In this document: positions 1,705 through 63,933 of the stretch, in pieces | How positions within the stretch are numbered: position 1 is the first letter of the stretch | Layout: each line of letters starts with the position of its first letter | DNA from: an uncultured Gammaproteobacteria bacterium | GTDB taxonomy: Bacteria; Patescibacteriota; Patescibacteriia; UBA9934 | Direction: 5' to 3' | NCBI GenBank assembly: GCA_964414795.1 | Contig: CAYPWV010000001.1 | Location: forward strand, 5,221-69,220 | Length of the DNA stretch: 64,000 bases | The notes under the pieces: generated by a model | Databases searched by the model: none | What the model saw: the letters and a program-made list of their open reading frames with translations, nothing else | Told to the model about the DNA's origin: nothing | Translations under genes and position numbers: made by a program

Positions 1705-4575
<2,871 letters not shown>

Positions 4576-4596
4576 GTATAAGCATATAATAATAGG

Positions 4597-4648
4597 ACTC
4601 TCGAAGGTCCTTCGGTCGACAAGAGTCTCCCTCAGGATGACACGGGTG
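4597..4648. repeat. Family B repeat, half copy
   Basis: GAAGGTCCTTCGGTCGAC...CTCCCTCAGGATGACAC matches the right half of element 1559-1674. Confidence 0.6.
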
Positions 4649-4649
4649 C

Positions 4650-5165
4650 TTAATTCGTTTCTGGGGTCGTCGTATCTTCTGCAACCGTATACGCTGGACA
4701 CGTTCCTGCCACAAACCCATTTTCTGTTAAACAATTCAAACCTTTTTGCAATCCGAGCTGCGCGCTTGCAGATTCAAGTTCAAATTGCACACGAAATGAT
4801 TCGCTATCTGAGGTGTAGCAATATGCGTTCTCTTGATCTGCGCATCCTGAAAGCTTTTTTACGCCTTGTTGAGGTGTTTCGGGAACAAATTCAATGTATG
4901 GCTCTGTGTCTGAAGAACAGGGAGAAGAAAAACCATCAGCTCCTAAACATGCCGTGGTAACCTGACCAAGTGCGAGTGCGGTAGATGCTTCGGGATACAC
5001 GCCCTTTTCCATGTAAAAAAGATCAAGACCAATTTGCACCTCGCGCATGTGTGCAATACGCGTGACATCACGTAGTTGCGAACGTGCATGAAGCACAAGA
5101 AATCCGGAGATTACCCCCAAGATTGCAATAACCGTACCAATTGCGAATATTTCTGTTTTGTGCAT
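4650..5165 (-). CDS. Membrane-anchored secreted protein, possibly pilin-like. It has an N-terminal hydrophobic helix and a Cys-rich C-terminal region but no canonical G/FTLIE cleavage motif.
   Basis: MHKTEIFAIGTVIAILGVISGFLVL N-terminus. Six Cys in the C-terminal half. Located between pilD and pilM. Confidence 0.4.
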   Translation of the reverse strand: MHKTEIFAIGTVIAILGVISGFLVLHARSQLRDVTRIAHMREVQIGLDLFYMEKGVYPEASTALALGQVTTACLGADGFSSPCSSDTEPYIEFVPETPQQGVKKLSGCADQENAYCYTSDSESFRVQFELESASAQLGLQKGLNCLTENGFVAGTCPAYTVAEDTTTPETN

Positions 5166-5195
5166 AAAAGGTTAATGAACGATAAACCATGAACT

Positions 5196-5567
5196 TTAAA
5201 GCTCTCTTCCCGCTCTGCGAACAATGTCTTGGGGAGTTTGATGACCGCGCAGTGCTACCGTTGCCGCCCCGGCATTCAGCAGCTCTTCGGCTTCTCCGGG
5301 GTGCAGAACCGATACCTCTACAATAACACGAGTTTGGGTAAGCGTAGGAAGGGTTTTCCAGCGCCGCAAGAGAAAGAGCATTTCGTCCTTCTGCTGCATC
5401 TGCGCAACAATCACATGCGGGCGAAATTGTACTGCCCTGCGTTCCGCATCTTCGGCACGCGATGACTCTTCCGCTTCCCATCCTTCTTTTTCAAATTGCC
5501 GCACAAGAACACTTCTGTAGCGTGCATCCGTGCATAAAATAATCACGCGAGGTTCTCGAGACTTCAT
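5196..5567 (-). CDS. Degenerate CheY-like receiver domain protein (pseudo-receiver). The phospho-acceptor Asp positions are not conserved.
   Basis: About 120 aa with receiver-like alternation (RVIILCTDARYRS...HVIVAQ...VIVEVS). Adjacent to and overlapping the pilM 3' end. The start is inferred at MKSREP. Confidence 0.35.
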   Translation of the reverse strand: MKSREPRVIILCTDARYRSVLVRQFEKEGWEAEESSRAEDAERRAVQFRPHVIVAQMQQKDEMLFLLRRWKTLPTLTQTRVIVEVSVLHPGEAEELLNAGAATVALRGHQTPQDIVRRAGREL

Positions 5568-6682
5568 ACAATCCCTTTTTCTGTAATGCGAAGTGCAAGA
5601 CCTGCCGCAACACACAAACGAGGCCCTACTTCTTCTAAAATCTCTCGCGCTTCAGGTGCGGTAGCGATGCGTGCCCATGGATCTCCGATATACACATTTA
5701 CGTTGAGCGCCGCAGTAACGTACGCATCAATGCCCGGAAGATGCGCGGAACCGCCCGTGATAAAAATCTTTTCCACGGTTTTGTGATCGTGAAAGGCTTG
5801 ATCTGCATACATCTGCAGTGCGTAGCGCATTTCGTGCACCATGGGTTGAAGTGCTTCTTGCAAGGGCTTAGGGAGTTCTTGCACGCCGTAGCCTAAATCT
5901 CGCTTTGCAACTTCTGCATCAGCCTCAGAAATACCCATGTTCTTTGCAAGTGCTCGGGTGATTTCCTCTCCCCCTCCCTTAATACCTCTCGTAAGAAACG
6001 GGATTCCTTCATCGGCAATAATCACATTTGAACGCTTTCCGCCCATATCTACAATCATAATCTGGGCATTCTCTTCGGAAACTAATGCACGCACCAGCGA
6101 CATCACTTCGGTTTCTAAAGAAACCAACTCAATTCCTGCCTTAGTAAAAACATCGAGATATTTTTGAATGAGTTTTTTAGGAGCTCCCGTAAGAAAAATA
6201 CGAATAAAACGCTCCTTGCCTTCACTTGCGGCTGCACCTTCATTTTTTCCGGCATTCTTTAATGCCTCTTTATCTAAAACTACGGAATCAAGCACCATTT
6301 CTTCAAGAGGCAGGGAAAATACTTTTTTTGCTTGCGCCTCAATTGCCGGACGTAGATCTTCAAGAGGAGAAGACGGGATAGGGATACTGATAATGGTATG
6401 AAAAACTTCGGATGCCGGAAGCGCCGCAATGGCTTTTTTTGCACGAACTCCTGCATCTTTGCAGATACTTTTTATCATATTCGCAATCTTGTCTGGCTCA
6501 AGAAGCAGCGAAAGATCGTTTTGGATGCTGGTTATTTCGGCGTAACCATACGTTGTAAGTCGAGGCTTTTCTTTTTCGAGTGTAAGCTCTACTACTTTTA
6601 CCCCCACGGTTCCAATATCTATTCCTAAAAGACCGTTAAAAACGGGCTCTGTTCCTTTTTTTGATCCTCCAAACAAGGCCAT
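5564..6682 (-). CDS. pilM: Type IV pilus assembly ATPase-like protein PilM (actin-like fold)
   Basis: LLGIDIGTVGVKVVEL N-terminal actin-fold motif, ~370 aa. The start is chosen at Met19 of the listed ORF (MALFGGSKK), which avoids overlap with rnhA. Confidence 0.8.
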   Translation of the reverse strand: MALFGGSKKGTEPVFNGLLGIDIGTVGVKVVELTLEKEKPRLTTYGYAEITSIQNDLSLLLEPDKIANMIKSICKDAGVRAKKAIAALPASEVFHTIISIPIPSSPLEDLRPAIEAQAKKVFSLPLEEMVLDSVVLDKEALKNAGKNEGAAASEGKERFIRIFLTGAPKKLIQKYLDVFTKAGIELVSLETEVMSLVRALVSEENAQIMIVDMGGKRSNVIIADEGIPFLTRGIKGGGEEITRALAKNMGISEADAEVAKRDLGYGVQELPKPLQEALQPMVHEMRYALQMYADQAFHDHKTVEKIFITGGSAHLPGIDAYVTAALNVNVYIGDPWARIATAPEAREILEEVGPRLCVAAGLALRITEKGIV

Positions 6683-11198: not shown

Positions 11199-12278
11199 CT
11201 AAAGTATTTCAAGCGCATCATGCACAATGCGTTCATCGGCGTTTACGGGGAAGATACGACGAATGCGTTCGGCGTGTTCCTGACGATAAGCAGTTGATTG
11301 CACCATTTTGAGGATAGCCTGGAGAAGTACTTGAGGTGTCATTTGGTAGATTACTTCAGCAGCTTCTTGCGCCTGCAGTGCTTTGGCATTTTCTTCTTGT
11401 TGTGATCCCGGAATGGGAATGATAATGGATGGCTTACCAAGCGCTACAAGCTCGGAAATAGTCCCCATGCCCGCACGAGAAACCACCACATCAGCAACCG
11501 CGTACGCATCTGCCATACCTTCATGCAAAAATTCAAGTGCGATATACGGTTTTCCTTGCTCTTGAAATGTCTGTAACGCAGGGAGCATTTTTCCTCGACC
11601 GGTTAAATGAATAACATTCGCGCAGCGTAAAAGATCTTCTGCAATAATAAGCATCGTTTCATTGAGCGAGGATGCTCCTGTTCCGCCACCCATAACAAGC
11701 ACGGTGGGAAGATCGGCACGCAAAACGTAGCGATCGCGCGCACTTACCCGATCGCCCAGCGCCAACATGCTGCGCACCATCGTTCCCACTACGCTTGTTT
11801 TTTTTGCCGCATACGCTGCAGTACTTTCTGGCCACGTGACGCTTATACGTTTTGCAAAAGGCGCCATGATGCGATTTGCAAGCCCCGGGCGCACATCAAG
11901 TTCGTGAATCCATACCGGAATACGCATACACCACGCCACTAAAACAACAGGCAGAGAAACATACGCTCCCGCAGAAAAAACCATGTCGGGACGCATGTTT
12001 TTAAGTATTTTTGCGGCTTGCCACACACTCCACATCATGTGAAAAGGAATGAAGGGATACGTCCACTTGCGATAGCGATCCATACGAGGAGCAGAAAGCG
12101 AAAGAAAAGGAATTTTCGCACCCTCAACAAGCAGTCGTTCGGGACCTTTTGGCGTACCGATCCACGAACACCGCACATCCGGATCGCGCCTGCGCCACTG
12201 CGCCGCAACCGAAAGCAAGGGCGTTACCGGCCCAAGCGTTCCCCCGCCCGTGAAGAGAATGTGATGAGAAGAAGACAT
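11199..12278 (-). CDS. murG: Undecaprenyl-PP-MurNAc-pentapeptide UDP-GlcNAc transferase (GT28)
   Basis: N-terminal GGGTLGP glycine motif, VMGGGTGASSLN C-terminal donor-binding motif. Lies in the murG-ftsW-mraY neighbourhood. Confidence 0.75.
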   Translation of the reverse strand: MSSSHHILFTGGGTLGPVTPLLSVAAQWRRRDPDVRCSWIGTPKGPERLLVEGAKIPFLSLSAPRMDRYRKWTYPFIPFHMMWSVWQAAKILKNMRPDMVFSAGAYVSLPVVLVAWCMRIPVWIHELDVRPGLANRIMAPFAKRISVTWPESTAAYAAKKTSVVGTMVRSMLALGDRVSARDRYVLRADLPTVLVMGGGTGASSLNETMLIIAEDLLRCANVIHLTGRGKMLPALQTFQEQGKPYIALEFLHEGMADAYAVADVVVSRAGMGTISELVALGKPSIIIPIPGSQQEENAKALQAQEAAEVIYQMTPQVLLQAILKMVQSTAYRQEHAERIRRIFPVNADERIVHDALEIL

Positions 12279-12280
12279 AG

Positions 12281-12497
12281 GTGAGAGTGTGAAGTTTGTA
12301 GTTGTTAGTTTGAAGTGAGTGGATGTTGTTTTTTATTGGAATGAAAGACAGCAGACGACAGATGGGGAAAGTAATCGGGGCTGTATTGTATTTAGGTGAG
12401 CAGATCATTTCTCTTATCCGTCGTCTGCTGTCTGTAGTCTGCTATCTCAAAAGAACTACCTTTCACTTCAAACTAACAACTACAAACTTCAAACCTT
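12281..12497. repeat. Family C long palindromic element (~215 bp; arms AGTTTGAAGTGAAAGG.../...CCTTTCACTTCAAACT, core GACAGCAGACGACAGA.../...TCTGTCGTCTGCTGTC)
   Basis: Nested inverted repeats seen directly. It starts 3 nt after the murG start codon (its 5'-UTR side) and overlaps the last codons of pyrG. Confidence 0.75.
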
Positions 12498-14114
12498 TCC
12501 CAAAGCTGCCTTCACAAATCCCACAAACAACGGATGCGGCGACAAAGGACGCGATTGAAACTCTGGATGAAATTGTACTCCTACAAAAAATGGATGATCT
12601 TTCAGCTCGACGATTTCCACTAACGTTCCGTCGGGAGAAATGCCCGAGATCACGAGACCCGCACGTTCTAGCTCGGTTTTATACGCGTTATTAAACTCGT
12701 ACCGATGGCGATGACGTTCTGAAATCTCATCACTTCCATACGCATTTCTCGCAACGCTTCCCTTCTTGAGATTGCACACATACGAACCTAAACGCAGTGT
12801 TCCTCCCAATCCTTTTCCTTTCAGCTTTTCATCTTGTCCGTGCATTAAATGAATAACGGGATGTGCGGTTTTTGGATTTATCTCCTCTGTATGCGCATCC
12901 TTCCATCCCAGCTCCGTACGTGCAAACGCAATCACTGCACACTGCATACCGTAACACAATCCCAAATACGGAATCTTATGCTTTCGCACAAAGGTGATCG
13001 CCGCAATCTTTCCCTCAATTCCTCGCGATCCAAATCCTCCGGGAATAAGGATACCGTCGTACTGCAATAATTCTTCGAGTGCTTTGGGATCTTTTTCGTA
13101 GGCTTCGGCGTTGAGCCATTCGATAACTGGTTTTGCGTTTTGCGCCCACGCCGCGTGCTTAATTGCCTCAAGCACCGAAAGATAGGCGTCGGACAACAGA
13201 AAATCTCCTGTTGAAAAATACTTTCCAATAACGCCGATACGCACCTCCTTTTTTGCAGAAATAATCGTGGTTACCATCTTTTTCCACGCAACAAGATCGG
13301 GAGCTTTTTTGCGTTTTCCAAAGGATTTTAACACCGTGTCCGCAAAACCTTGTTCCTCAAACACCAACGGCACCTCATAAATAGAACGCACATTCGGTGC
13401 GGCGATGATATGATCGGGCGTTACTCCGCAAAACCTACTCAACTTTTCTCTTCGCGGCGCATCAAGCGCAGTTTCCGATCGACACAGCAAAAAATCAGGC
13501 GCAATACCTACGCGATTCATTTCACGCACCGCATGTTGTGTGGGCTTTGTTTTCATTTCGCCAATAGAAGGAGGCACGGGAAGATAACTCACAAGCACAC
13601 TGCGCACCTGCTTCGGCGTATGCAATTGCATCATGCGAATGGCTTCCAAAAAAAGAATATTTTCATATTCTCCCACCGTTCCCCCGACCTCAATCAACGT
13701 AAAATCTGCCTTTGCCTCTTTTGCTGCTCGCTCAATGCGTGCAATCACCTCTTCAGGAACGCGAGGAACCACCTCAACACATTTCCCCCCATATTCACCT
13801 CGCCGTTCACGCTCAATAACCGATAAATAAATACGCCCCGTGGTCATGTAATTCTTTTTGGTGATGTTGATATCTAAAAATCGTTCGTAGTTTCCAATAT
13901 CTTGATCCGTCTCATCCCCATCTACCGTTACAAAAACTTCCCCATGCTCAACCGGGTTCATCGTTCCCGCGTCGACGTTTACGTACGGATCAATTTTGAT
14001 TGCCGTCACCGTATATCCTCGCGCGCGAAGTAAAAGCCCCAGCGATGCTGTTGACGTTCCCTTTCCCACGCCACTCATCACGCCACCGACTACGAAGATG
14101 TATTTGTGTTGCAT
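12489..14114 (-). CDS. pyrG: CTP synthase
   Basis: MQHKYIFVVGGVMSGVGKGTSTASLG N-terminus, GATase domain with GLCYGMQ. Confidence 0.95.
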   Translation of the reverse strand: MQHKYIFVVGGVMSGVGKGTSTASLGLLLRARGYTVTAIKIDPYVNVDAGTMNPVEHGEVFVTVDGDETDQDIGNYERFLDINITKKNYMTTGRIYLSVIERERRGEYGGKCVEVVPRVPEEVIARIERAAKEAKADFTLIEVGGTVGEYENILFLEAIRMMQLHTPKQVRSVLVSYLPVPPSIGEMKTKPTQHAVREMNRVGIAPDFLLCRSETALDAPRREKLSRFCGVTPDHIIAAPNVRSIYEVPLVFEEQGFADTVLKSFGKRKKAPDLVAWKKMVTTIISAKKEVRIGVIGKYFSTGDFLLSDAYLSVLEAIKHAAWAQNAKPVIEWLNAEAYEKDPKALEELLQYDGILIPGGFGSRGIEGKIAAITFVRKHKIPYLGLCYGMQCAVIAFARTELGWKDAHTEEINPKTAHPVIHLMHGQDEKLKGKGLGGTLRLGSYVCNLKKGSVARNAYGSDEISERHRHRYEFNNAYKTELERAGLVISGISPDGTLVEIVELKDHPFFVGVQFHPEFQSRPLSPHPLFVGFVKAALGKV

Positions 14115-16943: not shown

Positions 16944-17080
16944 AAGAGGAGATCGATTAAGTAGGCTAGAGGGCTAGTTGTGCTAGGCTGGCTCTATTAT
17001 AAGACTACTTCGTTTATTACCTAGCCCCACTAGCCTACTAGCCCAACTCATTCCTTCCCCACCATTCTACCCCCTTCCCT

Positions 17081-17154: not shown

Positions 17155-17427
17155 ATGGCACATAAACTAGCCCAGGGTTCTACACGCAACGGCCGCGATT
17201 CGCAGGCCAAGCGTCTCGGCGTAAAGCGCTCAGACGGCACCACGGTCACCACCGGCCAAATTATTGTTCGTCAGCGTGGCACCAAAATCCACCCCGGCAA
17301 AAACGTTGGTGTAGGAACCGATTACACGCTCTTTGCACTTAAAGATGGTGTTATCAGCTTTAAAAAGCGCAAGTCTCCCAACTTCGTTGGCGCCCTCAAG
17401 CTCCGCACCTACGTTTCCGTAACCTAA
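17155..17427 (+). CDS. rpmA: 50S ribosomal protein L27
   Basis: [52 protein letters not shown] is near-consensus L27. The start is trimmed from the longer track ORF. Confidence 0.9.
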
Positions 17428-17430
17428 GAA

Positions 17431-17458
17431 AAAAGAGATCCGCAAGGGTCTCTTTTTG
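17431..17458 (+). terminator. Rho-independent terminator after rpmA
   Basis: AAAAAGAGATCC-GCAA-GGGTCTCTTTTT hairpin with a T-run. Confidence 0.7.
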
Positions 17459-17603
17459 GTTCATGTGGTTAAAATGGTTAAAGTGTTCTGTTCTCGATGC
17501 TCACAGAAACTATTTAACCATTTTGACCAACTTAACCTCCCTTCAAAAACAATAGGCCGCCCACGGTGGACGGTCCTGAACGAAAACGAAGATCAAGAAA
17601 GAA

Positions 17604-17723
17604 CTACCCGGCTGCATCCCCATGATACCAGTAGTATTGAATATTGCCCCTTGAGTCTCTACAGGGCGTATAATCCTCCGTCGACCACTTCTTTGGCATT
17701 TCCCAGGGCATGACTATATCCAT
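17604..17723 (-). CDS. Small ORF (39 aa, MDIVMPWEMPKKWSTEDYTPCRDSRGNIQYYWYHGDAAG), cassette copy 1
   Basis: ATG is preceded by AACAAGTGGGAG (GGGAG Shine-Dalgarno, 5-6 nt spacing) and a TTGAATATTTTGGTATTTTT promoter-like leader. Followed by a GGCCGCCCACGGTGGACGG hairpin and U-run terminator at 17554-17576. It is below the ORF-track size cutoff. Confidence 0.3.
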   Translation of the reverse strand: MDIVMPWEMPKKWSTEDYTPCRDSRGNIQYYWYHGDAAG

Positions 17724-17825
17724 GAAACACTCCCACTTGTTAGAGGCGATAAAAAAATACCAAAATATTCAATAAAAAGCAATTTAATCATCTTAACCGC
17801 TTAACCCTTCTCCCAAAAAAACAAG

Positions 17826-17849
17826 AGGCCGCCCACGGTGGACGGCCCC
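17826..17849 (-). terminator. Intrinsic terminator of small-ORF cassette copy 2 (hairpin GGCCGCCCACGGTGGACGGCC plus T-run on the minus strand). It is near-identical to the hairpin at 17554-17576.
   Basis: Seen directly. Both copies are followed on the minus strand by TTGTTTTT. Confidence 0.55.
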
Positions 17850-17865
17850 GGAGAACGGAAACTCG

Positions 17866-18069
17866 CTATCCAAGCTCCGGAACAGCAGGTATATAGAGAC
17901 CAATGCGCTGCTCATACCGCAGGCGCTGCCACCATCCCGGATCTTCGTCATCTATCGTTCCCCTATAGGGGTTCTTGGCGACGACTACCATTTCCCCTCC
18001 TTCCGGCGTGGGAACCTCTTCTTCCTTCGCCGTTTCTTTCCCATTCGCCGAGCCATTTGAAGTCGCCAT
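17866..18069 (-). CDS. Small ORF (67 aa from MATSNGSANGKETAKEEEVPTPEGG...WWQRLRYEQRIGLYIPAVPELG), cassette copy 2
   Basis: Same leader as copy 1 (TTGATATTTTGGTATTTTTTTGTTGTCTCTAACAAGTGGGAGCGATC-ATG). Acidic N-terminus, Trp-rich C-terminus. Confidence 0.4.
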   Translation of the reverse strand: MATSNGSANGKETAKEEEVPTPEGGEMVVVAKNPYRGTIDDEDPGWWQRLRYEQRIGLYIPAVPELG

Positions 18070-18128
18070 GATCGCTCCCACTTGTTAGAGACAACAAAAA
18101 AATACCAAAATATCAAGAAAAGAACAAA

Positions 18129-18557
18129 TTATCCCTGCAATGCTTCAGCGATAACGGTAATCGTTGCTTCAAAACCGGTGGAGAATTCAATAACAACCTC
18201 GTGCGTGCTAGGTTCGGTGATGGGAACCATTTTTATAACGTCAAAACCTACGGTGTGACCCATTTCTTTAAGTGCGGCGCGAACATCTTTGTAGGAAATG
18301 GGTTTGGCAAATTTTCCATTTTTCATCTTGCCGGCAACGATAACTTCAAGGCCGTCGAGTTCTCCTGCAAGCTGTTCATCTTCTCGTTCTTCTTTACTTG
18401 TTTTTTGAGGAGCCTCTTCTTCCTTGGGTGCACCACCTGCATGTTCAAATGCCAAATGCTGCGGAAATAAAAAATTTACCGCGTAACCTTCCGGAACTTC
18501 CACGGTCGCGCCCGCCGGACCGATGGAGCTGACATCTTCGGTAAGGGTAATCCACAT
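18129..18557 (-). CDS. rplI: 50S ribosomal protein L9
   Basis: MWITLTEDVSSIGPAGATVEVPEGYAVNFLFPQHLA matches the L9 N-domain. Has an acidic linker insert. TGGTATAAT -10 box upstream. Confidence 0.8.
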   Translation of the reverse strand: MWITLTEDVSSIGPAGATVEVPEGYAVNFLFPQHLAFEHAGGAPKEEEAPQKTSKEEREDEQLAGELDGLEVIVAGKMKNGKFAKPISYKDVRAALKEMGHTVGFDVIKMVPITEPSTHEVVIEFSTGFEATITVIAEALQG

Positions 18558-20267: not shown

Positions 20268-20468
20268 AAGGAAAAGTTAGGAAGTTATTAGTTAGAAGCT
20301 TGAAGTGAAAGGTAGTTCCTTCGGGATAACAGACTACAGACAGCAAACGACAGATAAGAAATACCTGATTCTGATCACTTTCCCCATCTGCCGTCTGTAG
20401 TCTGCCGTCCTCACAAACAAAAACACCCTCCACTCACTTCAAACTACCGACTACAAACTTCAAACCCT
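20268..20468. repeat. Family C long palindromic element (full length)
   Basis: GAAGTGAAAGGTAGTTCC...GGAACTACC-like arms and GACAGCAAACGACAGA core. Lies between the divergent ctpA (starts 4 nt after the ctpA ATG) and PEGA genes. Confidence 0.75.
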
Positions 20469-20476
20469 TCCCTCCT

Positions 20477-30360: not shown

Positions 30361-32137
30361 ACAACGTTTCTTCGTTGAGGGTTATGACGGGAGTGAAAAT
30401 GATGTTTTCCTGCGCAAAGACGACGTCGTGGAGATACGCGAGATCTGATTGAGGAAACGTGATGCCGAAATAATAAAGCGGCGATGTAGCAAGAAGTTCG
30501 GGAATTGCGCGATATGTTTTTTCATCTCTCAACGGCACGATGACTGCACGATCGGGCCAGAGATATTTATCTGCACGATCGACAATAATGATTGCATCTT
30601 TGGGCGTAGATGCAAGAATGTTCGCTTGCTTTTCTGCAAACGTTGCAAGAGCTTCGCGCGTACGGAGCACGCCGTCATCACCTGTAAAGACGAGATGAGC
30701 TGAAAACAAAGTCATTCCTACGATACAAACAAGCGGGAGAGCGACGATGATCTTTTTCATCCATATCCTTTGCACGAACGAATGTGAAAAGTTTTTCACA
30801 TGGAGCAATGCATATGCCGTTGCAGGAGCAAGTGCTACAAACACCGGCAACCAATACCGCGTATGAGAATTTCCTAAAGAAATAATAGATGGATCGGGAT
30901 TATCAAAAAATGTCCAACTGCCGTAGAGAATGAGGAGGTAGAGGAGCGACACGGTGAGCAAAAGAAAAGAGACGGCAGAAGGCAGAAGGCAGAAAAGAAC
31001 TGTGAATTGAGAATGTCTGTCGTCTGCTGTCTGCTGTCTGTAAGCTCCAATCCATTTCTTCACAACCCCCCACACCAAACACCCCACACCCCCTACCCCC
31101 ACCACCGTCATCCACGGATACAACGCAAAAACATATCTCCACACGTTTTTCAGCGTTGCACGTTCATGAAATCCAAACGGAAAAAGAATGGCGAATACTT
31201 TTTCATACCACGGAATAATTGCACCTTGCGCAATGGTTCCGCCTACTTCCCATACCGGCTGACTCACCGTGTATCCCGTAATAAATGGCGATCCGTAGAT
31301 TGATGCATGCAAAAATAGCGTGATGCCAATCATGATTCCGCATCCTAAAAAGAGAGCGATGGCATCACAAAAAGACAGTTTTTTAGCGATGGATGCCTGC
31401 CTACCGGACAGGCAGGCCGGATCAAGTCCGACATGACGAGAAGCGAACCCCACGCCACGTCGTTCGCGAACGACGTGGCACCCCCAACACCCCACCCCCA
31501 ACACCCCTCCTATAATCCACACCCACTCAGAAGGACGAATTGCAAGTGCAGACGCAAACATGCCTCCTGCACAAAAAAGAAAAAAATATCGTGTACGCGA
31601 GTTCTCTTTCTTAATCGCCACAAGCACCATCCACACCGCAATCAACAACAGCGCAACAAAAGGCACGTTCGGCATAAGCGAACGGATACTGTAATACCAC
31701 CACGCCGGATGTACCGCGAGCGCAACAACACTCAGCAGCGCAAATTCCTGCGATCCACCCAAACGACGAATAATGCCGTACAGCGCACAAAGACCGAGGA
31801 TACAAAAAATCGGCCCCGTACTCACGGCAAGATACGGCGAAAAAAAGAAAAGTAATCCCGCAATGTACGGCATGCCCAAAAATCCTGCGGGGACGATTGC
31901 GGCACCGACCGTGGTTGTACTTCGCGGATGAAGCATGCCGTGCAAAGAAATGTTTCTCGCCTCATCACTTTTTGCAACGCCTGTTTCAGCGATGCTCTGC
32001 GCAAATGCCCATGTTGCATGTTCATCGGGCGAAACGAAGAGGTCATCGCGGGTTGCGTACGGAATCGCAAGAGAAAAAAGTGATGCACCGTAAGCAAGAG
32101 CAAGTGCTACGCAGGCAATTTTTTTAAGCGTGCTCAT
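30341..32137 (-). CDS. GT-C fold membrane glycosyltransferase (ArnT/PMT-like). It contains in-frame copies of repeat families A and C.
   Basis: Multi-TM N-terminal half with an early DE-containing loop (ATRDDLFVSPDE), large C-terminal soluble domain. Confidence 0.5.
   Translation of the reverse strand: MSTLKKIACVALALAYGASLFSLAIPYATRDDLFVSPDEHATWAFAQSIAETGVAKSDEARNISLHGMLHPRSTTTVGAAIVPAGFLGMPYIAGLLFFFSPYLAVSTGPIFCILGLCALYGIIRRLGGSQEFALLSVVALAVHPAWWYYSIRSLMPNVPFVALLLIAVWMVLVAIKKENSRTRYFFLFCAGGMFASALAIRPSEWVWIIGGVLGVGCWGCHVVRERRGVGFASRHVGLDPACLSGRQASIAKKLSFCDAIALFLGCGIMIGITLFLHASIYGSPFITGYTVSQPVWEVGGTIAQGAIIPWYEKVFAILFPFGFHERATLKNVWRYVFALYPWMTVVGVGGVGCLVWGVVKKWIGAYRQQTADDRHSQFTVLFCLLPSAVSFLLLTVSLLYLLILYGSWTFFDNPDPSIISLGNSHTRYWLPVFVALAPATAYALLHVKNFSHSFVQRIWMKKIIVALPLVCIVGMTLFSAHLVFTGDDGVLRTREALATFAEKQANILASTPKDAIIIVDRADKYLWPDRAVIVPLRDEKTYRAIPELLATSPLYYFGITFPQSDLAYLHDVVFAQENIIFTPVITLNEETLYAITRE
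30955..31040. repeat. Family C core motif (CAGACAGCAGACAGCAGACGACAGACA...) inside the GT-C CDS, in-frame
   Basis: Encodes ...LLPSAVSFLLLTV... with no stop codon. Confidence 0.6.
31386..31484. repeat. Family A palindromic element inserted in-frame in the GT-C CDS
   Basis: GCGATGGATGCCTGCCTACCGGACAGGCAGGCCGGATCAAGTCCGACATGACG plus a CCACGTCGTTCGCGAACGACGTGG palindrome. Translates as ...HVVRERRGVGFASRHVGLDPACLSGRQASIAKK... Confidence 0.7.
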
Positions 32138-32139
32138 AG

Positions 32140-32718
32140 CTAGAGCGAATAGGTGATGAGCGCAACGACCGCAAAAACAAGTGAAAGACCAAGCGTATAT
32201 TCTCCCGTTGCAATAAGCGCCGGTACTTCAAGTACAATACCAAGCAAGAGCAAACCAATGGACGTGCACTGCAACACCATTTTCGTTTTTCCCCACGCGT
32301 TCGCCATCATCACACCTCCGCTATACTTCTGTGATGCCCACCGCAACGACGGGAGAATGTCGAGAAAAATGGCAAAAAAGATCAGTGCCGGATGGTAATA
32401 TTTTAATCCTACAAGAAGTGCAACAGAACCTACGAGAAGCTTGTCGGCAATCGGATCAAAAAAGATTCCCCACGGAGTGATTTTATCTCGCACACGTGCA
32501 AGAGAGCCATCGATGACATCCGTAAACGCAGTTAACACAAAAAGAGGAACCGCAAGCAAATACCATTCGTTCGACAAAAACAACAATACGAAAGGCGTAA
32601 GCAGCATGCGCACAATGGTAACGTGATTTGGCTGAACAAACTCAGGAATAAAGGGTAAAACAACCGCTTTCATGAGCTTGTCATGCGGATATAAACGAGG
32701 TGCTTGTTTTTCAGGCAT
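32140..32718 (-). CDS. pgsA: CDP-alcohol phosphatidyltransferase (PgsA-like)
   Basis: DVIDGSLARVRDKITPWGIFFDPIADKLL matches the CDP-OH_P_transf motif. Confidence 0.7.
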   Translation of the reverse strand: MPEKQAPRLYPHDKLMKAVVLPFIPEFVQPNHVTIVRMLLTPFVLLFLSNEWYLLAVPLFVLTAFTDVIDGSLARVRDKITPWGIFFDPIADKLLVGSVALLVGLKYYHPALIFFAIFLDILPSLRWASQKYSGGVMMANAWGKTKMVLQCTSIGLLLLGIVLEVPALIATGEYTLGLSLVFAVVALITYSL

Positions 32719-32731
32719 ACTCTATGAAAAG

Positions 32732-34795
32732 ATGGTAACAGAATCTATGCGCCGTGTCTTTCTTGCTCTCACGTTTCTTTCCTGCGTTTCTCTGCTGGGA
32801 TCTGCGGTTTATTATACAAGCATCATTACACCAGGAACGCTCGTGCTGGCAACTTTAGGGGCGCTCTTGGTGACAGCGGGAATGGATCACTTCTTCGTCA
32901 TCCCGGATCAAGTCCGGCATGACGAAAAACAAAAAAACAAGATGACCGATACGGTGATCCGCCACTACGTTCTCTTCCTCATCGGTCTCTCCTCCCTCAT
33001 CATCTTTGTCTTCCTCGCGATCACCCATCCCATCACTACTGCTACCCGATCACTCTGGCTCCTCTTTTCTCCGACACACATTGTATTTTTGACGATCGCG
33101 TTTTTTTGTACGATTTTATTATATAAAAAACAAGAGGGCGGATACGTTGATCCGCCCCTACACGATCGACCGCCGCGGTACGCGGCGATTCTTGGCGGTC
33201 TGATTGCATTCGTCACGTCTGCACTTGCGGCGATACTCTTTCCACTAGGATTTGGATTCGATCCTTTTCTTCATCGCGCAACACTCGAGCACATCGCAAC
33301 ATTCGGAACCATCACGCCAAAACCACTGTATTACATCGGTGCGTACGCTCTTGAACTTTGTGGAAATCTTTTGCTTCGTATTCCATTATTTTCTCTTGAT
33401 GTTTTTTTGGCTCCAGTTGGATTTGCGTTTCTCGTTTTTATTGCAGTCCGTAGCAAGCAATTGCATCCCGCAATCCTCGCACTCCTTCCCTTTTCTGCAT
33501 TCGTGAGCACAACGCCGCAAGCCATAGGATTTTTGTGGATTTTTGCCGTGATTCTTGCGTTGAAAAATAATCTTCCGCAGTTGTATCTTTGGCTTTTTGC
33601 ACTTGCCGCACTTGCCGCGCATCCTATTGCCGGCGTTCCGGCGGTGATTTTGGTAACGATCTATTGTCTGTTGAACACGAAACGGAACAAAACGAACCAC
33701 GACAAGGTGGCCGATACGGTGATCGGCCACTACGGATCTATTCTTACCACCATTTTCATTATTCTCGGCATCCTCGCACTTCCGCTCATGTTCTTTGCGC
33801 AGCAGCTCATTACCGGCATGAACGTAGGATTTTCTTGGGTAGCGTTTACGGATTTTTCTCGCATTCCTTCTCTTGGATTTTTCTCGATGCAGGGACATGC
33901 GCTCATGGATACCGTCATGCTGTTTGGTGGAAATGTTTTTTTCATCACGGTGATTCTTGCAATTATTGGATTCATCGTGACTTTGGGTCAACGAAAAATC
34001 AATGCTAGATCTTTCGCACAATCACTCGCACTTTTGCTTGCAAGTATCGTTGCACTGGGTAACTTTGTGATGCTCAGTTTAGGATTTGATTTTCCGTTTC
34101 TCATTTCGTACGAACGTACCGATTTTGCGTTGCGACTGGTAACGATTGCGTGGATATTTCTTTTGCCCCTTGCGTCGGATGGAATGAAAAGGATTATAGG
34201 AATTGTGACGGAATGGAAATTACGCAAATCAGAAACACGATATTTAGAATCACATAGGGACGAATTGAGGACGTACGGGCGGGTTTTAAACCCGCCCCTG
34301 CATACGCGTCTAAAAAATGCCTACGGCATTTTACTCATTCTCATCCTTTTCTCCGCAAATATTTACACCACCTTTCCTCGACACGATGGCTACACGCGAT
34401 CGGCGGCGTTCAATGTTACTGTCGCAGATACCGAAATCGTCCACCGCATTGCCGATGATGCTGCAGGTGAATCCTACGCCGTACTCAGCAATCAAACGCT
34501 TGCTTCGATGGCTATCCAAGAATTTGGCTTTTTCCAGTACTTTCATAACAACATCTTCGCCTACCCCATCCCTACCAGCGGCCCACTCTACACGCTCTTT
34601 CTTACCATGATTACAACTCCCAATCTTGAAACTATTGCACAAGCTCACGATCTCACCGGCGCATCTCGCATCTACTTCGTGGTGCACAACTACTGGTGGG
34701 AAGCCGATCTTCGCATTGCCGAAACAAAAAAAATCGCAGACGCATATTTCACGTCTGCTGATGGAACGATTACCGTATTTGTCTTTTCCAGATAA
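32732..34795 (+). CDS. Large polytopic membrane protein of unknown function (about 690 aa). It has an internal protein-level duplication and in-frame copies of three different repeat families.
   Basis: More than 12 predicted TM helices. Start inferred at MVTESMRRVF. Repeats at 32896-32923 (A), 33136-33157 (F) and 34277-34297 (E) are all translated without stops. Confidence 0.5.
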   Translation: MVTESMRRVFLALTFLSCVSLLGSAVYYTSIITPGTLVLATLGALLVTAGMDHFFVIPDQVRHDEKQKNKMTDTVIRHYVLFLIGLSSLIIFVFLAITHPITTATRSLWLLFSPTHIVFLTIAFFCTILLYKKQEGGYVDPPLHDRPPRYAAILGGLIAFVTSALAAILFPLGFGFDPFLHRATLEHIATFGTITPKPLYYIGAYALELCGNLLLRIPLFSLDVFLAPVGFAFLVFIAVRSKQLHPAILALLPFSAFVSTTPQAIGFLWIFAVILALKNNLPQLYLWLFALAALAAHPIAGVPAVILVTIYCLLNTKRNKTNHDKVADTVIGHYGSILTTIFIILGILALPLMFFAQQLITGMNVGFSWVAFTDFSRIPSLGFFSMQGHALMDTVMLFGGNVFFITVILAIIGFIVTLGQRKINARSFAQSLALLLASIVALGNFVMLSLGFDFPFLISYERTDFALRLVTIAWIFLLPLASDGMKRIIGIVTEWKLRKSETRYLESHRDELRTYGRVLNPPLHTRLKNAYGILLILILFSANIYTTFPRHDGYTRSAAFNVTVADTEIVHRIADDAAGESYAVLSNQTLASMAIQEFGFFQYFHNNIFAYPIPTSGPLYTLFLTMITTPNLETIAQAHDLTGASRIYFVVHNYWWEADLRIAETKKIADAYFTSADGTITVFVFSR
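32896..32923. repeat. Family A minimal palindrome (CGTCATCCCGGATCAAGTCCGGCATGACG) in-frame in CDS
   Basis: Encodes FFVIPDQVRHDEK. Confidence 0.6.
33136..33157. repeat. Family F hairpin repeat GGGCGGATACGTTGATCCGCCC (in-frame in CDS; second copy at 63841-63862)
   Basis: Seen directly; encodes EGGYVDPPL. Confidence 0.6.
34277..34297. repeat. Family E hairpin repeat GGGCGGGTTTTAAACCCGCCC (in-frame in CDS; other copies at 42514-42536 and 47696-47716)
   Basis: Perfect palindrome seen directly; encodes GRVLNPPL. Confidence 0.65.
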
Positions 34796-35426: not shown

Positions 35427-35534
35427 CGTCATGCCGGACTTGATCCGGTCTGCCTGTCCGGTAGGCAGGCATCCATCGTTTTTAACCCCATCTTTCTTGA
35501 TGCGATGGATCCCGGGTCGGTGCCCGGGATGACG
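35427..35534. repeat. Family A palindromic element, full-length intergenic copy (CGTCATGCCGGACTTGATCCGG...CCGGGTCGGTGCCCGGGATGACG)
   Basis: Terminal inverted repeats and internal palindromes seen directly. Confidence 0.75.
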
Positions 35535-37909: not shown

Positions 37910-38090
37910 AGGTAGGGAAAGTTTGAAGTTTGGAGTTGGTAGTTTGAAGTGAAAGGATGTTCTGTTTTAGCGTGTCATCCTGAGGGAGTGCTACGTCGAC
38001 CGAAGGAACTTCCAGACGACAGACTGCAGAAGGCAGATGGGGAAAATGAAAGAACTGAGAGAACTGAGAGTGAGGATGGCATTAGTTAGT
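37910..38090. repeat. Family C element (left arm and core) with a nested family B half-copy (37968-38020)
   Basis: AGTTTGAAGTTTGGAGTTGGTAGTTTGAAGTGAAAGGATG arm is identical to the copy at 52305. The right arm is missing. It starts 3 nt after the GT4 start codon. Confidence 0.7.
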
Positions 38091-51063: not shown

Positions 51064-52302
51064 CTATTGTATCGCCTCCGTATAGATGCCAAAAAGACCC
51101 TCCCAATGTTTATCCGGATCCCCTACCGCTATCCCTCGTACAGCGGCCTGGAGACGCATCTCTTGCACAGCGGAGGCGTTTTTATCGCCTTCAGAAGCAA
51201 GGAGAAAACGGATGTGTTTCTCCCACACATCAAGCGCATCCGGATGCTCCACAAACCCTGAAATGCCATGCTCCACAATCTCCGATAATCCCCCTTCGCT
51301 GCTCACGATTACGGGAGTTCCCAGCGACAATGACTCAAGCCCAACAAGACCAAAAGGCTCAGGCCACCGCGACGGCACAATAACGCCTGCCGCATGCTTG
51401 ATCATCTCCCAAAGTGCTTGAGGCGTTTGCACAGAAAGTACAGAAAGATTTTTTCTCTTGGCTGCAAGTTTGCGAAGCGGTTCTTCCTGAGCGCCATGAC
51501 CTACACATACAAACGTAACGTCCGGCATACGCACCACCAGCTCCATAAGTACATCAACGCCTTTATACGTTTCAAAACGACTAGCGAAAATAATTTGGGG
51601 GATACGATGTGTTCGTACGGGCGGAACATTTTCCGCCCCTACAGATGCTCCCGATGGCAACGGCAACACACGAATATTCATAGCGCGATACCCCCCATCA
51701 GTGAGTGCTTTTTTTACGGCATGCGATGCGGTGAGAATGTGCGTTACACCTTGCGTCCACATACCACACCTTTTTTGCACACGGACGACCGCATCCACAA
51801 CGCCCGTTGCAAACGCCGAATTTTTTATGCATTTCGTTCTCACCACGTCGCGCCACGACGCGTGCGCAGACAACGGACCCACGCCATCAAACAATCCGTA
51901 ATTTGCGCTGATATATCCGTAATCGTGCGCCGTGAGCACCACGGGAACACCCGCATCTTTTGCAGCACTCAGCACTGACGGCGAGAGATGTGTGTATAGA
52001 TTATGCGCGTGAATGACATCGGGCTTGAACGCAGCAATTATTGCGCGTGTTTTTTTATACGCTTCGTAACTCCAGAGTGTTCTTCCTAATTGTCGCAACG
52101 CCTGTATCCCCTTCCCCACGCCTGAGGTTTCAAGATTGCTTACAAAAAAATGCTCCCACGGTGAAGTATTATTTTCCGGATGATGCATGGCGAGCACGGC
52201 CGTTGCGTGGCCATGTGCATCCGCCAGGCGCATCACATCGTGCATATATCTCCCCACGCCATCGCGTTCGTGGTTGTATTTGTTAATGTGGAGAATGCGC
52301 AT
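51064..52302 (-). CDS. Glycosyltransferase family 4
   Basis: MRILHINKY...GVGRY N-domain, EPFGLVGLESLSLGTPVI C-domain motif. Confidence 0.8.
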   Translation of the reverse strand: MRILHINKYNHERDGVGRYMHDVMRLADAHGHATAVLAMHHPENNTSPWEHFFVSNLETSGVGKGIQALRQLGRTLWSYEAYKKTRAIIAAFKPDVIHAHNLYTHLSPSVLSAAKDAGVPVVLTAHDYGYISANYGLFDGVGPLSAHASWRDVVRTKCIKNSAFATGVVDAVVRVQKRCGMWTQGVTHILTASHAVKKALTDGGYRAMNIRVLPLPSGASVGAENVPPVRTHRIPQIIFASRFETYKGVDVLMELVVRMPDVTFVCVGHGAQEEPLRKLAAKRKNLSVLSVQTPQALWEMIKHAAGVIVPSRWPEPFGLVGLESLSLGTPVIVSSEGGLSEIVEHGISGFVEHPDALDVWEKHIRFLLASEGDKNASAVQEMRLQAAVRGIAVGDPDKHWEGLFGIYTEAIQ

Positions 52303-52304
52303 AG

Positions 52305-52508
52305 GGGAGAGTTTGAAGTTTGGAGTTGGTAGTTTGAAGTGAAAGGATGTTTTTTTTGTTGGATGAAGATGAAAGACAGCAGACTACAGACGACAGATTA
52401 GTGAAGTGATCAGAATCAGATATCTTTCATCTGTCGTCTGCTGTCTGTATTCTGTTATTTCAAAGGAACTACCTTTCACTTCAAACTCTTAACTTATAAC
52501 TTCACACC
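52305..52508. repeat. Family C long palindromic element (full length)
   Basis: Arms AGTTTGAAGTTTGGAGTTGGTAGTTTGAAGTGAAAGGATG / GGAACTACCTTTCACTTCAAACTC. Core GACAGCAGACTACAGACGACAGA / TCTGTCGTCTGCTGTCTG. It starts 3 nt after the GT4 start codon and overlaps the Wzy-like gene stop. Confidence 0.75.
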
Positions 52509-54038
52509 TTCCCCATCATCACTCTTCACCCTCGACACCACAAAGCCACACAACACCCACACATACGGTGCCATGGTGCGGACTTCGAAAAAAGTGGCGA
52601 GGAAGGCGTTGAGGGAAAAAGCAACGAGAATTGCTGCCGTGGCTCCGGCAACGGCGCGAATGTCTTTATCTTCGTGATGGAGTGCGGTATGCACACACAA
52701 TAAAAACAAACTGATATAAAACCACAGAAAAGCGCCTAGTCCGATAATTCCAAGCTCGCCCCACAAACTCAACCAATTGTTATCAATATATCCGCCGGTT
52801 CCGTACACACCAAAAGGCAAACTTAAGCGATCGTACACGAGTGTATTCCCCAGTGCCGCAGCCGCACCACCTCCATACTGTCCAGGACCCACACCAAACA
52901 ACGGCGATGACGGCACCACGGTAAGCACGGTTTCCACAACCCAATAGAGGCGACCAAACCCGACATATTCCCCCCGCCAACGTTCGTAAGAAAATGCTTC
53001 AAAGAAACGTTCCGCAACCGTCTGCTCCGGAGTATCGGTAAGCGTGTTTACGAGAAGATTGCTGCCGAAGATGTAGGCCGCTAAAAGAAACGGTGCGATC
53101 ATTGCACACCACAACACGCGCTTATCTTTTTTAAGGAAAATGGCGTAGAAAAGAAAAGCGAGCAAAAATCCAAACCATGCAGAACGCGAATACGTTAACA
53201 CGAGCACAGGAATACCTAGCGCAAGAAGAACCATGCACGCTATTTTTGCCTGCTTTCCTAAACGCTTATCGTATAAAAAGGCAATGGTGAGCAAAAATAC
53301 GAGCGCCAAAAAAATACCCAACTGATCGTAACGCCCCATGGTGCCAAACACACGCTGCCCAGGATCCCAAAATTGATCGGTGCCTTCGGTGAGTTGGATG
53401 TTGCCGAGTGTTCTACGTTCTGAGGGGAGCAAAAAAGCATCGAATGATCCACCAGCAATAGCCTGCAATCCACCGATGGCAACTTGGATGCCCGCAACGG
53501 TTATCAAAATAATCAACAGTGATTTCATCCATTGTTTTGAAGGGGCAAGTTGCACTACGACAAAAAACAAAAGTAAGAAACGAATAAGCTGCCGCGCGCC
53601 AAGGAGCGCAATTGCCGGATCAATAACGTTCACCACAACAGACGCAACAATGGCTACCAAAAAAAAGAAAAATGGTGCATCAAGTGCTGAACGCTTCCAT
53701 TTCTTCTCATGCCAAAACATGTGCAAGAGCACTGACGCTACAAGCATGTACACCACAAGCTCAGAACCATAGCGCGCAAGGACATACACTTCATCGGGAA
53801 TCCACTTCAAAATAAACGGCTCAAACGGCAAATACGCAAGCAATCCCAAAAGCACCTGCTGCGGACGCCACCAGGCAAGTGCAATAAGCGCAACTCCTGC
53901 CGTAAGCGCAATCGTTACTGCGGGAGACGTGAATAACGACAAAAATAATGCACCGCCCACAATGGCAAATAGCACGATCATGGCAATGCGTGCCTTGGTA
54001 TCTGCAAGAAGGATATGAAGGTGAAGATGTTGCCGCAT
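52494..54038 (-). CDS. O-antigen ligase/polymerase family (Wzy-like) membrane protein
   Basis: About 12 TM helices. LTYSRSAWFGFLLAF motif is typical of the Wzy_C / O-antigen ligase domain. Confidence 0.65.
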   Translation of the reverse strand: MRQHLHLHILLADTKARIAMIVLFAIVGGALFLSLFTSPAVTIALTAGVALIALAWWRPQQVLLGLLAYLPFEPFILKWIPDEVYVLARYGSELVVYMLVASVLLHMFWHEKKWKRSALDAPFFFFLVAIVASVVVNVIDPAIALLGARQLIRFLLLFFVVVQLAPSKQWMKSLLIILITVAGIQVAIGGLQAIAGGSFDAFLLPSERRTLGNIQLTEGTDQFWDPGQRVFGTMGRYDQLGIFLALVFLLTIAFLYDKRLGKQAKIACMVLLALGIPVLVLTYSRSAWFGFLLAFLFYAIFLKKDKRVLWCAMIAPFLLAAYIFGSNLLVNTLTDTPEQTVAERFFEAFSYERWRGEYVGFGRLYWVVETVLTVVPSSPLFGVGPGQYGGGAAAALGNTLVYDRLSLPFGVYGTGGYIDNNWLSLWGELGIIGLGAFLWFYISLFLLCVHTALHHEDKDIRAVAGATAAILVAFSLNAFLATFFEVRTMAPYVWVLCGFVVSRVKSDDGEGVKL

Positions 54039-61002: not shown

Positions 61003-61416
61003 TGGTGGACCCGGGGGGAATTGAACCCCCATCCGTACCACATTCTCCAAAACTCTTTCTTCCAAGCTCATTCGCGTTTAAACGGTTAACGTCTTTTTCG
61101 GTCGAGAAACACGACGAACAGTGAAACCGACGATCATGCAGCAAGAGTCCCGGGCGTAAGGCATGATGCTCACACACAGCAAGTCAGAGATTTATTGCAT
61201 GACGGTGTTATGTACTGACGACATAACGGTCATGGGTGGCGGCGTTATTACGCGGCGACCGGAGCAAATGAGAACGCGCGAGTCGCCGAAGCGAAAGCGG
61301 TCTTCATTTGTGAAAATACGTTTGCATGTACTTTCTGAGGCGTGTGATGACGCGGAACGCCTCGTCCGCGGCTTGAGAGGGATTGGGAATGTAGACGTCG
61401 AAAGCCTAGCAGGCCC
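61003..61416 (-). ncRNA. ssrA: tmRNA (SsrA)
   Basis: 3' tRNA-like end GGGGGUUCAAUUCCCCC-CGGGUCC-ACCA. The 5' GGGCCUGCUAGGCUUUCGACG pairs with the 3' acceptor strand (with two G-U wobbles) and resembles the E. coli 5' end. Internal reading frame GCA AAC GUA ... CCG GUC GCC GCG UAA UAA. Convergent with smpB. Confidence 0.8.
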
Positions 61417-62473: not shown

Positions 62474-62559
62474 ATCACAAGATCCTGAGCTCGGCGAAGG
62501 ATCTAGCGAACGAATAAGAGATATCTGACAAATGGGTTCTCTGGACCCTTCCTATCGTC

Positions 62560-62600
62560 AGGGTCTTTCCATTCACTTCAAACTCTTAACTTCATACTTC
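62560..62600. repeat. Family C right-arm remnant (CACTTCAAACTCTTAACTTCATACTTCAACC)
   Basis: Matches the right arm of the copy at 52470-52508. Lies between rpmI and rplT. Confidence 0.55.
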
Positions 62601-62613
62601 AACCTCTCTCCAT

Positions 62614-63644: not shown

Positions 63645-63840
63645 AAGCGGCGCGAGGCAAGAAGGTGACCGTCACAAAACGCTGCCCTGTCGGTTTCGAC
63701 CGATGGGGCAAACCGCTGACAAAGTACTAGGAGATACAACTCCTTCGGACCTGTCAGCGGGAAACTCACGCCTGCTGACAAGTACCGAAGAGCGATCTTC
63801 TGGGAACGTTGGCGGGCGTTTTGCATTTCGAGAAACGCGG

Positions 63841-63862
63841 GGGCGGATACGTTGATCCGCCC
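63841..63862. repeat. Family F hairpin GGGCGGATACGTTGATCCGCCC, intergenic copy
   Basis: Identical core to 33136-33157. Confidence 0.6.
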
Positions 63863-63933
63863 TTACATGCCCTTCATCGCAAGGCTTCAAAGATTTGCTC
63901 ATCTTGGAAACCCCACGCTTTTAATTTCGAAAA

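Follow-up and report, generated by a model that had tools for sequence, protein, structure and literature searches.

The stretch analysed here, called the window throughout, covers 64,000 nt of contig CAYPWV010000001.1, part of a metagenome-assembled genome of the Patescibacteria, and the feature under study lies in it between two ribosomal protein genes. The rplI gene (18129-18557, minus strand; ribosomal protein bL9, 142 aa, Pfam Ribosomal_L9_N/C) and the rpmA gene (17155-17427, plus strand; ribosomal protein bL27, Pfam Ribosomal_L27) are convergent, and two tandem minus-strand units, which share a leader and a hairpin terminator, reside between them, beginning right after the rplI stop codon. 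Each unit carries a small open reading frame (ORF), of 67 aa in unit 1 (ORF67) and of 39 aa in unit 2 (ORF39). This layout had been described in a first-pass annotation of the window, and is confirmed position for position; the flanking ribosomal genes, as also remarked there, do not explain the two units. On the minus strand, unit 2 is followed by a palindrome, by a bidirectional terminator shared by rplI and rpmA (about 17429-17457, both strands; recognised by sequence comparison with relatives), and by the convergent rpmA. The locus is not a one-off assembly artefact, since an independent Logan assembly (L001) is 100% identical to it over 801 nt. The organism is also present in sequencing runs such as SRR16481186.

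All parts of the two units are on the minus strand. The 5' module of unit 1 (18066-18128) is made up by a -35-like TTGTTC (18127-18122), a 17-nt spacer, an extended -10 element TGgTATTTT (18107-18099), the leader CTCTAACAAGTGGGAG (18090-18075) and the ATG (18069) which opens ORF67 (17866-18069). The intrinsic terminator of this unit (17815-17849) features an 11-bp stem and a 3-nt loop (hairpin 17849-17825), followed by TTGTTTTTTT, with a T-run to 17815. Next comes a half-copy of a three-box arm (17783-17806; GGTTAAG cGGTTAAG ATGATTAAA, period 9), found directly upstream of the -35 of unit 2. The 5' module of unit 2 (17720-17784), 82% identical to that of unit 1, has the same parts, a -35-like TTGCTT (17782-17777), a 17-nt spacer, TGgTATTTT (17762-17754), the leader (17745-17730) and the ATG (17723) of ORF39 (17604-17723). 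Its intrinsic terminator (17545-17576) has the same hairpin core as that of unit 1 (17576-17554), followed by ATTGTTTTT, a T-run, and its box array (17513-17537) runs on into the full palindrome, which ends at 17458.

The identity of the 5' modules (63-65 nt; 54/66 columns) includes a perfect 18-nt block, ATATTTTGGTATTTTTTT, and a perfect 16-nt block. The 3' modules (about 80 nt) are 73% identical (63/86 columns); a perfect 20-nt hairpin core is followed by the T-run, and conservation reaches about 45 nt beyond the T-run, into the GGTTAAG/GGTTAAA box array. Both hairpins score as intrinsic terminators with T-runs in a terminator scan. In the 64 kb the 39-nt leader pattern ATATTTTGGTATTTTTTTnnnGnCTCTAACAAGTGGGAG has exactly two copies (minus strand, 18113-18075 and 17768-17730; 0.00 copies in shuffles), as do the 16-mer CTCTAACAAGTGGGAG (0.01 copies expected from shuffles) and the 20-nt hairpin core CCGTCCACCGTGGGCGGCCT (17845-17826 and 17573-17554; again 0.01 expected). 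The duplicated modules thus exceed chance. Between the units 54 nt are identical, distributed in three blocks and interleaved with diverged spacers; the 5-nt spacer after the -10 keeps 1/5 positions, the spacer between GGGAG and ATG 2-3/6. The middles of the two units show no alignment above chance (local p=0.34; semi-global without the conserved flanks p=0.79), and BLASTP yields no alignment between the ORF67 and ORF39 peptides, which bears out the earlier view that the small ORFs are mutually unrelated.

Related loci, collected via their bL27 and bL9 proteins, are about 76-79% identical to the window at the DNA level. Collinearity with 14 of them ends at or just before 17457-17461; six of the 14 also have rplI, and there collinearity resumes at 18144-18145. 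Because collinearity breaks and resumes around it, the segment 17458-18128 is an insertion. The terminator at 17429-17457 is, judging from its retention in relatives, ancestral, and marks the right edge of the inserted DNA. In three lineages (L006, L060, L063) the gap is empty, and only the rplI stop, one shared terminator and the rpmA stop are found. In others, rpmA and rplI are separated by a 287-aa gene (L002), by a ribbon-helix-helix (RHH) pair resembling a toxin-antitoxin system (L005), or by a CDP-alcohol phosphatidyltransferase gene plus a 123-aa ORF (L008). Beside rpmA or rplI alone reside a sigma factor (L004), a 314-aa gene (L007) and others (L062, L065). Immediately downstream of rpmA, L003 carries a reverse transcriptase and the bAvd accessory gene (4265-5815), that is, a diversity-generating retroelement.

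With no cargo in some lineages and varied cargo in others, the rplI/rpmA gap is a hypervariable accessory slot, and the two units identify it as a hotspot of insertion in this family of Patescibacteria. In its occupancy it is like other hypervariable slots for accessory genes, which lie between conserved core genes and are integration hotspots; it differs in its cargo here, which is tiny (about 690 nt), devoid of a mobility gene and internally duplicated. None of the cargo of the relatives is similar to the two units in DNA or protein. The ORFs were also considered as pseudogene fragments of the larger slot genes of the relatives, a reading rejected since six-frame translation matched only the palindrome in the relatives' variable regions. 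The six nearest genes were profiled with Pfam, and the neighbours (bL9, a NUDIX hydrolase, an S41 protease, bL27 and NifU) are all housekeeping; the bL27 belongs to a 90%-identity cluster labelled 'Patescibacteria group bacterium'.

The full palindrome (17458-17537, strand unspecified) carries GGTTAA boxes on both arms, three per arm at 9-nt spacing, GGTTAA(R) being paired with (Y)TTAACC, and the segment 17430-17545 folds at -37.7 kcal/mol (z=-5.0). Each unit terminates in a copy of the left arm. The sequences just past each arm (ATTGCTTTTT, ATAGTTTCT) resemble the sequence found just past the rplI stop (TTTGTTCT), and the repeat G(A/G)T(T/A)AA-(A)T(T/A)G(C/T)TT is present three times. Short repeats similar to GGTTAAAT-GTT(T)CT are also three in number: one is found at the rplI stop, a second between the two units, and the third where the palindrome loop starts. 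The palindrome is 89% identical to a hairpin of the related locus L013, a similarity exceeding that of the surrounding genes; the L013 hairpin sits ahead of nifU, on the other side of rpmA. The central core of roughly 10 nt, GAGCATCGAG, is inverted between the window (17458-17537) and L013 (3820-3892) when the asymmetric outer flank AAGGGAGGTTAAG is taken as the reference; recombination or template switching between the arms would give this inversion.

A long hairpin is found in the 5' leader of nifU in the window, too (16955-17040, minus strand); its three helices, of 7 bp each, are spaced at 9 nt (-50.5 kcal/mol, z=-4.8). Its boxes are GGCTAG/CTAGCC in the window and in L008, GGTTAA/TTAACC in L013 (3814-3898) and L007 (3753-3781). 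The GGTTAA palindrome is found also in the nifU leader of related lineages, and this genome has a counterpart with GGCTAG boxes ahead of its own nifU. In all three boxes, each of the two changed positions is matched by a compensating change on the opposite arm, and the other lineages have no hairpin. The nifU hairpin has the appearance of a conserved structure, or of an operator that co-evolves, ahead of this Fe-S scaffold gene. In three related large phage contigs (130-176 kb), ATGGTTAAA forms a tandem array of three copies in AT-rich intergenic DNA (L066 6786-6810, L067 3163-3187, L068 3459-3483). Their match to the GGTTAAA-box arm pattern is probably a coincidence, as it is a simple 3x9-nt tandem repeat which has the box of the palindrome arm and nothing else alike.

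Codon usage was scored with 41 long genes of the window as the reference. The score of ORF67 is 0.34 bits per codon, compared with 0.42+/-0.15 for pieces of real genes of equal length, -0.74 for off-frame pieces, and -0.12+/-0.15 for stop-free shuffles of ORF67 itself (p=0.0003). ORF67 ranks in the top 1.6% among the 254 ATG-ORFs of 35-80 aa found in the window, and is the best of its six frames. Its GC content per codon position (0.66, 0.46, 0.55) matches the gene pattern of the genome, the first position (GC1) being the highest, and public gene callers call it as a gene. By codon usage and composition, ORF67 is probably a real orphan protein, acidic and soluble. An internal GGAGG plus ATG at 17991 in ORF67 would yield a 41-aa product. 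Public records carry no gene call for ORF39. The peptides of both ORFs are acidic and hydrophilic (grand average of hydropathicity -0.80 for ORF67 and -1.02 for ORF39), and neither has a transmembrane stretch (maximum 15-residue Kyte-Doolittle mean 0.15). The description of the ORFs as Trp-rich suits ORF39, which is aromatic-rich (3 W in 39 aa), but hardly ORF67 (2 W in 67 aa).

Both units feature a TTGnTT hexamer, 17 nt, and then the extended -10 TGgTATTTT, so that the -10-like TATTTT noticed earlier is present, the -35 being weak. These elements are putative promoters, predicted from the sequence alone. The element TGGTATT(T/C)T (TGGTATTTT or TGGTATTCT) is found also in the rpmA promoter and ahead of the gene at 26080 (130 nt upstream), and the unit promoters would therefore be of the host's own style. 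In both units GGGAG lies 5-6 nt ahead of the ATG, which resides within a conserved TCATGG. The motif had been taken for a Shine-Dalgarno (SD) sequence; it is there, but is atypical, as an SD-like motif is found upstream of only 2/53 long ORFs of the window, below a rough chance estimate of about 10. Many genes of the window seem leaderless, with a -10-like element 7-12 nt before the ATG, or have a CA-rich, G-poor leader. In 9.4 kb of intergenic DNA, only the two units hold a GGAG plus ATG opening a plausible ORF of at least 30 aa; one other intergenic match adjoins the transfer-messenger RNA (tmRNA) gene and looks like chance. The scarcity of SD motifs in the window agrees with reports of Parcubacteria lineages that have no anti-SD (PMC9297842), a motif found in only 48% of Parcubacteria in the same published survey. 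The 16S rRNA gene of the genome lies outside the window.

The first-pass annotation had regarded the units as a variable module; a recurring family of such modules is not supported by any search. No third module copy is found in the window by pattern searches allowing up to 3 mismatches, and no diverged copy by nhmmer, run with both modules over the window, the duplicate contig L001 and 20 related loci (150 kb). Large collections were scanned for exact matches of 16-20 nt, which diverged copies in distant genomes would escape. In IMG/VR the 16-mer has four chance matches without flank similarity, and the hairpin core none. The leader, the only module scanned in GTDB (185,579 species genomes), has one chance match there, in Shewanella, and none in JGI metagenomes; the hairpin core has 39 matches in the latter, all in contigs of 51-74% GC (38 at 62% or higher) and with unrelated flanks. 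The insertion as a whole has no BLASTN match in collections of phages and plasmids. The two-unit locus is known from one genome only, none other among those searched having it, and on this account is a local curiosity.

Lack of conservation of the peptides in relatives had been named beforehand as grounds for giving up the finding, and neither ORF67 nor ORF39 has a homologue in protein searches. ORF67 itself was the only match to ORF67 among 5.8 billion clustered proteins, and again among 1.84 billion representatives searched in full with HMMER; no PDB sequence matches it significantly, and IMG/VR has no relative. For ORF39, tblastn against phage and plasmid collections was empty, and a protein search, in which one upstream residue was added to reach the 40-aa search minimum, found no homologue. 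Neither ORF matches Pfam, PHROGs, PADLOC or NCBIfam. Rfam has no match at gathering threshold in 17400-18200, where only sub-threshold chance matches were found.

The reading favoured, to which about an even chance of being correct is given, is that of a lineage-specific insertion holding two sister copies of a small self-contained unit, the product of an old tandem duplication, with the signals under selection and both units in use. The anatomy, the uniqueness, the hotspot and the codon signal are direct results; transcription, translation, the mechanism of duplication and selection on the blocks, all of which we infer from sequence features, would combine as follows. An original single unit would have been flanked by two short direct repeats, between which unequal crossing-over duplicated it, the recombining repeats being those similar to GGTTAAAT-GTT(T)CT; as the G(A/G)T(T/A)AA-(A)T(T/A)G(C/T)TT repeat occurs three times, this would be the simplest origin. 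Each unit would comprise a host-style extended -10 promoter, a 16-nt leader ending in GGGAG, an ATG 5-6 nt on, a short acidic ORF, a strong terminator and a half-palindrome. Spacers and middles would then have drifted to near-random while the 54 nt in three blocks persisted; drifted spacers next to identical blocks suggest that the duplication is old, that promoter region, leader and terminator are under purifying selection and, by extension, that both units are expressed. Unit 1 would most likely make the 67-aa orphan protein. The proposed -35 hexamer of unit 1 starts 1 nt past the rplI stop codon, and since no terminator separates rplI from unit 1, the latter can ride on the rplI transcript; unit 1 may thus be co-transcribed with rplI too, its hairpin then ending the rplI transcripts. 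The product of unit 2 might be a fast-evolved or decaying peptide, or an RNA.

Several observations weigh against this reading. For ORF39 no coding signal is seen (codon score 0.08; p=0.16 in comparison with shuffles), and its GC content is lower at the first than at the third codon position. A simple consensus scan does not flag the unit promoters, which match the sigma-70 consensus at only 7/12 positions. GGGAG, atypical in this genome, may not serve as a ribosome-binding site, because SD motifs are near-absent here and about half of Parcubacteria lack the anti-SD (PMC9297842). No relative has either ORF, so that selection at the protein level cannot be shown. Saturated middles beside perfect blocks, moreover, could equally mean that the middles have been replaced, and have not drifted.

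The main rival, rated unlikely, holds that the units encode sibling small RNAs, non-coding or dual-function, in which the 5' end is a base-pairing seed, the 3' end a terminator or chaperone-binding hairpin, and the centres are free. The layout of the units matches the architecture of OmrA and OmrB of E. coli, whose genes are adjacent and which are nearly the same at both ends, 5' and 3', but distinct in the centre (PMC2588501). The likeness extends to two adjacent same-strand units with near-identical ends, terminator included. The hardly used SD motifs of this genome (PMC9297842), the missing coding signal of ORF39, and the fact that ORF67 and ORF39 are unrelated to one another and to anything else fit sibling RNAs as well. 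The units differ from the enterobacterial pair in being 2-3 times longer and in having each an ORF at a fixed ATG after GGGAG, one of which looks coding; there is no sequence or Rfam relation to OmrA/OmrB, no target complementarity was found within the window, and the host is a member of the candidate phyla radiation (CPR). The gene-like codon usage of ORF67 (p=0.0003) and the ATG set at the same position in both units, 5-6 nt after GGGAG within TCATGG, speak against small RNAs, as does the absence of an Rfam match. The predicted RNAs are long (about 205-280 nt) and no more structured than shuffles (z=-0.2 and +1.6), and the 16-nt leader pairs with 41 translation-initiation regions of the window no better than shuffled leaders do.

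Non-functional remains of foreign or duplicated DNA in decay, with blocks kept identical by recent partial gene conversion or by chance and with spurious ORFs, would also account for a locus found in one genome only, and are considered improbable. ORFs of these lengths have a non-negligible probability of arising by chance in sequence of this kind (about 0.05 for ORF67, about 0.10 for ORF39), and single-sequence AlphaFold models of the two peptides are of low confidence (mean predicted local distance difference test scores 61 and 72). Yet 54 identical nt in three short blocks among near-random spacers are hard to obtain without constraint, the blocks fall on recognisable signals (the extended -10, the GGGAG-ATG pair, the terminator), and the codon usage of ORF67 is gene-like.

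Equally improbable is a small regulatory or cassette system native to a CPR bacterium, in which either sibling RNAs, possibly dual-function, would work through the invariant 16-nt 5' end and the hairpin, or an expression shell would exchange cargo at the half-palindromes. To our knowledge, small-RNA biology in CPR bacteria is unexplored, and the sibling-RNA or the cargo-exchange version would, if true, be the first of its kind in Patescibacteria.

An array of cassettes proper, that is, independent insertions or swaps of cargo in a conserved expression shell, recombining at the three-box GGTTAA half-sites in the manner of integrons or of polymorphic-toxin orphan modules, is very unlikely. Borders between conserved and unrelated sequence are sharp, a copy of one half-palindrome closes each unit, and the three junctions have the sequence G(A/G)T(T/A)AA|(A)T(T/A)G(C/T)TT in common, as such an array would have it; yet repeat-mediated tandem duplication gives the same junctions. 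The slot is a proven insertion hotspot, and the full palindrome, found at another locus in a related lineage, has hence been moved or copied, but no search revealed a third copy of the units, and no recombinase is found among the six nearest genes profiled. Integron gene cassettes with attC sites are similar in having unrelated short ORFs split by a conserved repeat of palindromic boxes, and boundaries at a recurring short core. The polarity of the boxes, 5' GGTTAA ... TTAACC 3' on both strands, is however opposite to that of attC, 5' RYYYAAC ... GTTRRRY 3', and the integron reading is rejected on this basis. The locus differs from integrons further because the units, two only, are parted by a half-site (the left arm) and not by a full site, have promoters of their own and no other copies, and no integrase is found among the nearest genes.

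A small toxin of a type I toxin-antitoxin system, a bacteriocin precursor or a Trp-codon leader-peptide attenuator, suggested by short ORFs with strong terminators, by the tandem Trp codons of ORF67 (20 codons before the stop, the terminator stem beginning 16 nt after it) and by the conflict-type genes which the slot attracts in other lineages (the RHH pair or the diversity-generating retroelement, in or beside it), is largely refuted and most improbable: both peptides are acidic and soluble, have no hydrophobic stretch and no Pfam, NCBIfam, PHROG or PADLOC match, including leader or family profiles of bacteriocins (Pfam, NCBIfam), the neighbours are housekeeping genes with no transporter, immunity or modification gene among the nearest, a crude scan flags no promoter-like or terminator-like site on the plus strand of 17458-18128, and no gene for an attenuator or a duplicated regulatory leader peptide to control follows either terminator on the minus strand, unit 1 leading to unit 2, and unit 2 to the palindrome, the terminator and convergent rpmA. 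The terminators are evident in minimum-free-energy folds, and no shared alternative helix stands out in them, the two middles being unrelated and hence not comparable.

The tandem duplication of a small unit, as favoured here, has also to be set beside phage morons, autonomous promoter-ORF-terminator units inserted between conserved genes. The locus resembles them in being a self-contained module of this type between two conserved genes, absent from relatives. It differs in that its flanks are chromosomal ribosomal protein genes, syntenic and housekeeping in all relatives, that no PHROG match and no match in phage collections is found, and that the promoter resembles the host's own. Small transcription units duplicated in tandem within a hotspot of accessory DNA are already known as a general kind; the contrast between conserved ends and free centre is unusually clean. 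The locus is small, strain-restricted accessory DNA, and as a clean case of constant expression signals around free sequence it suits the study of new small genes or RNAs in reduced genomes. The SD-like starts of both units, in a window largely avoiding them, bear on translation start in CPR lineages possibly devoid of anti-SD.

Other repeats were noticed in the window. A palindromic intergenic module of roughly 200-230 nt is found in at least four copies in 64 kb (12276-12502, 20281-20472, 37910-38051, 52300-52515, 62559-62611). Its outer arms are the CA-rich leader CACTTCAAACTnnnnACTnnAAACTTCA..CC (8 copies, 0 expected), and its centres carry repeats of the AGACnGCAGACGACAGA type. In six cases an arm stops 2-6 nt short of the start codon (ATG) of an unrelated gene; the arm at 12464-12491 faces the pyrG 3' end and leads no gene. 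The element may be a shared bidirectional promoter-leader module, or one similar to miniature inverted-repeat transposable elements, supplying SD-free leaders.

GC-rich hairpins, AAACAAGAnGnCnGATACGGTGATCnGCC, are repeated at 32935-32969, 33128-33162, 33700-33734 and 63833-63867. Three of these copies reside in frame within a 707-aa ORF (32672-34795) encoding a large multi-pass membrane protein, and two encode DTVI(R/G)HY, which is reminiscent of palindromic elements inserting into coding sequence. A second palindromic repeat, CGTCATGCCGGACTTGATCCGG(G)ATGACG, has 3 copies (0 expected; 31417-31438, 32903-32924, 35427-35448), two of them inside long ORFs, where they encode PDQVRHDE. ARAGORN finds no tRNA in the window and missed the tmRNA gene, which resides at 61003-61416 on the minus strand (Rfam RF00023, 86 bits).

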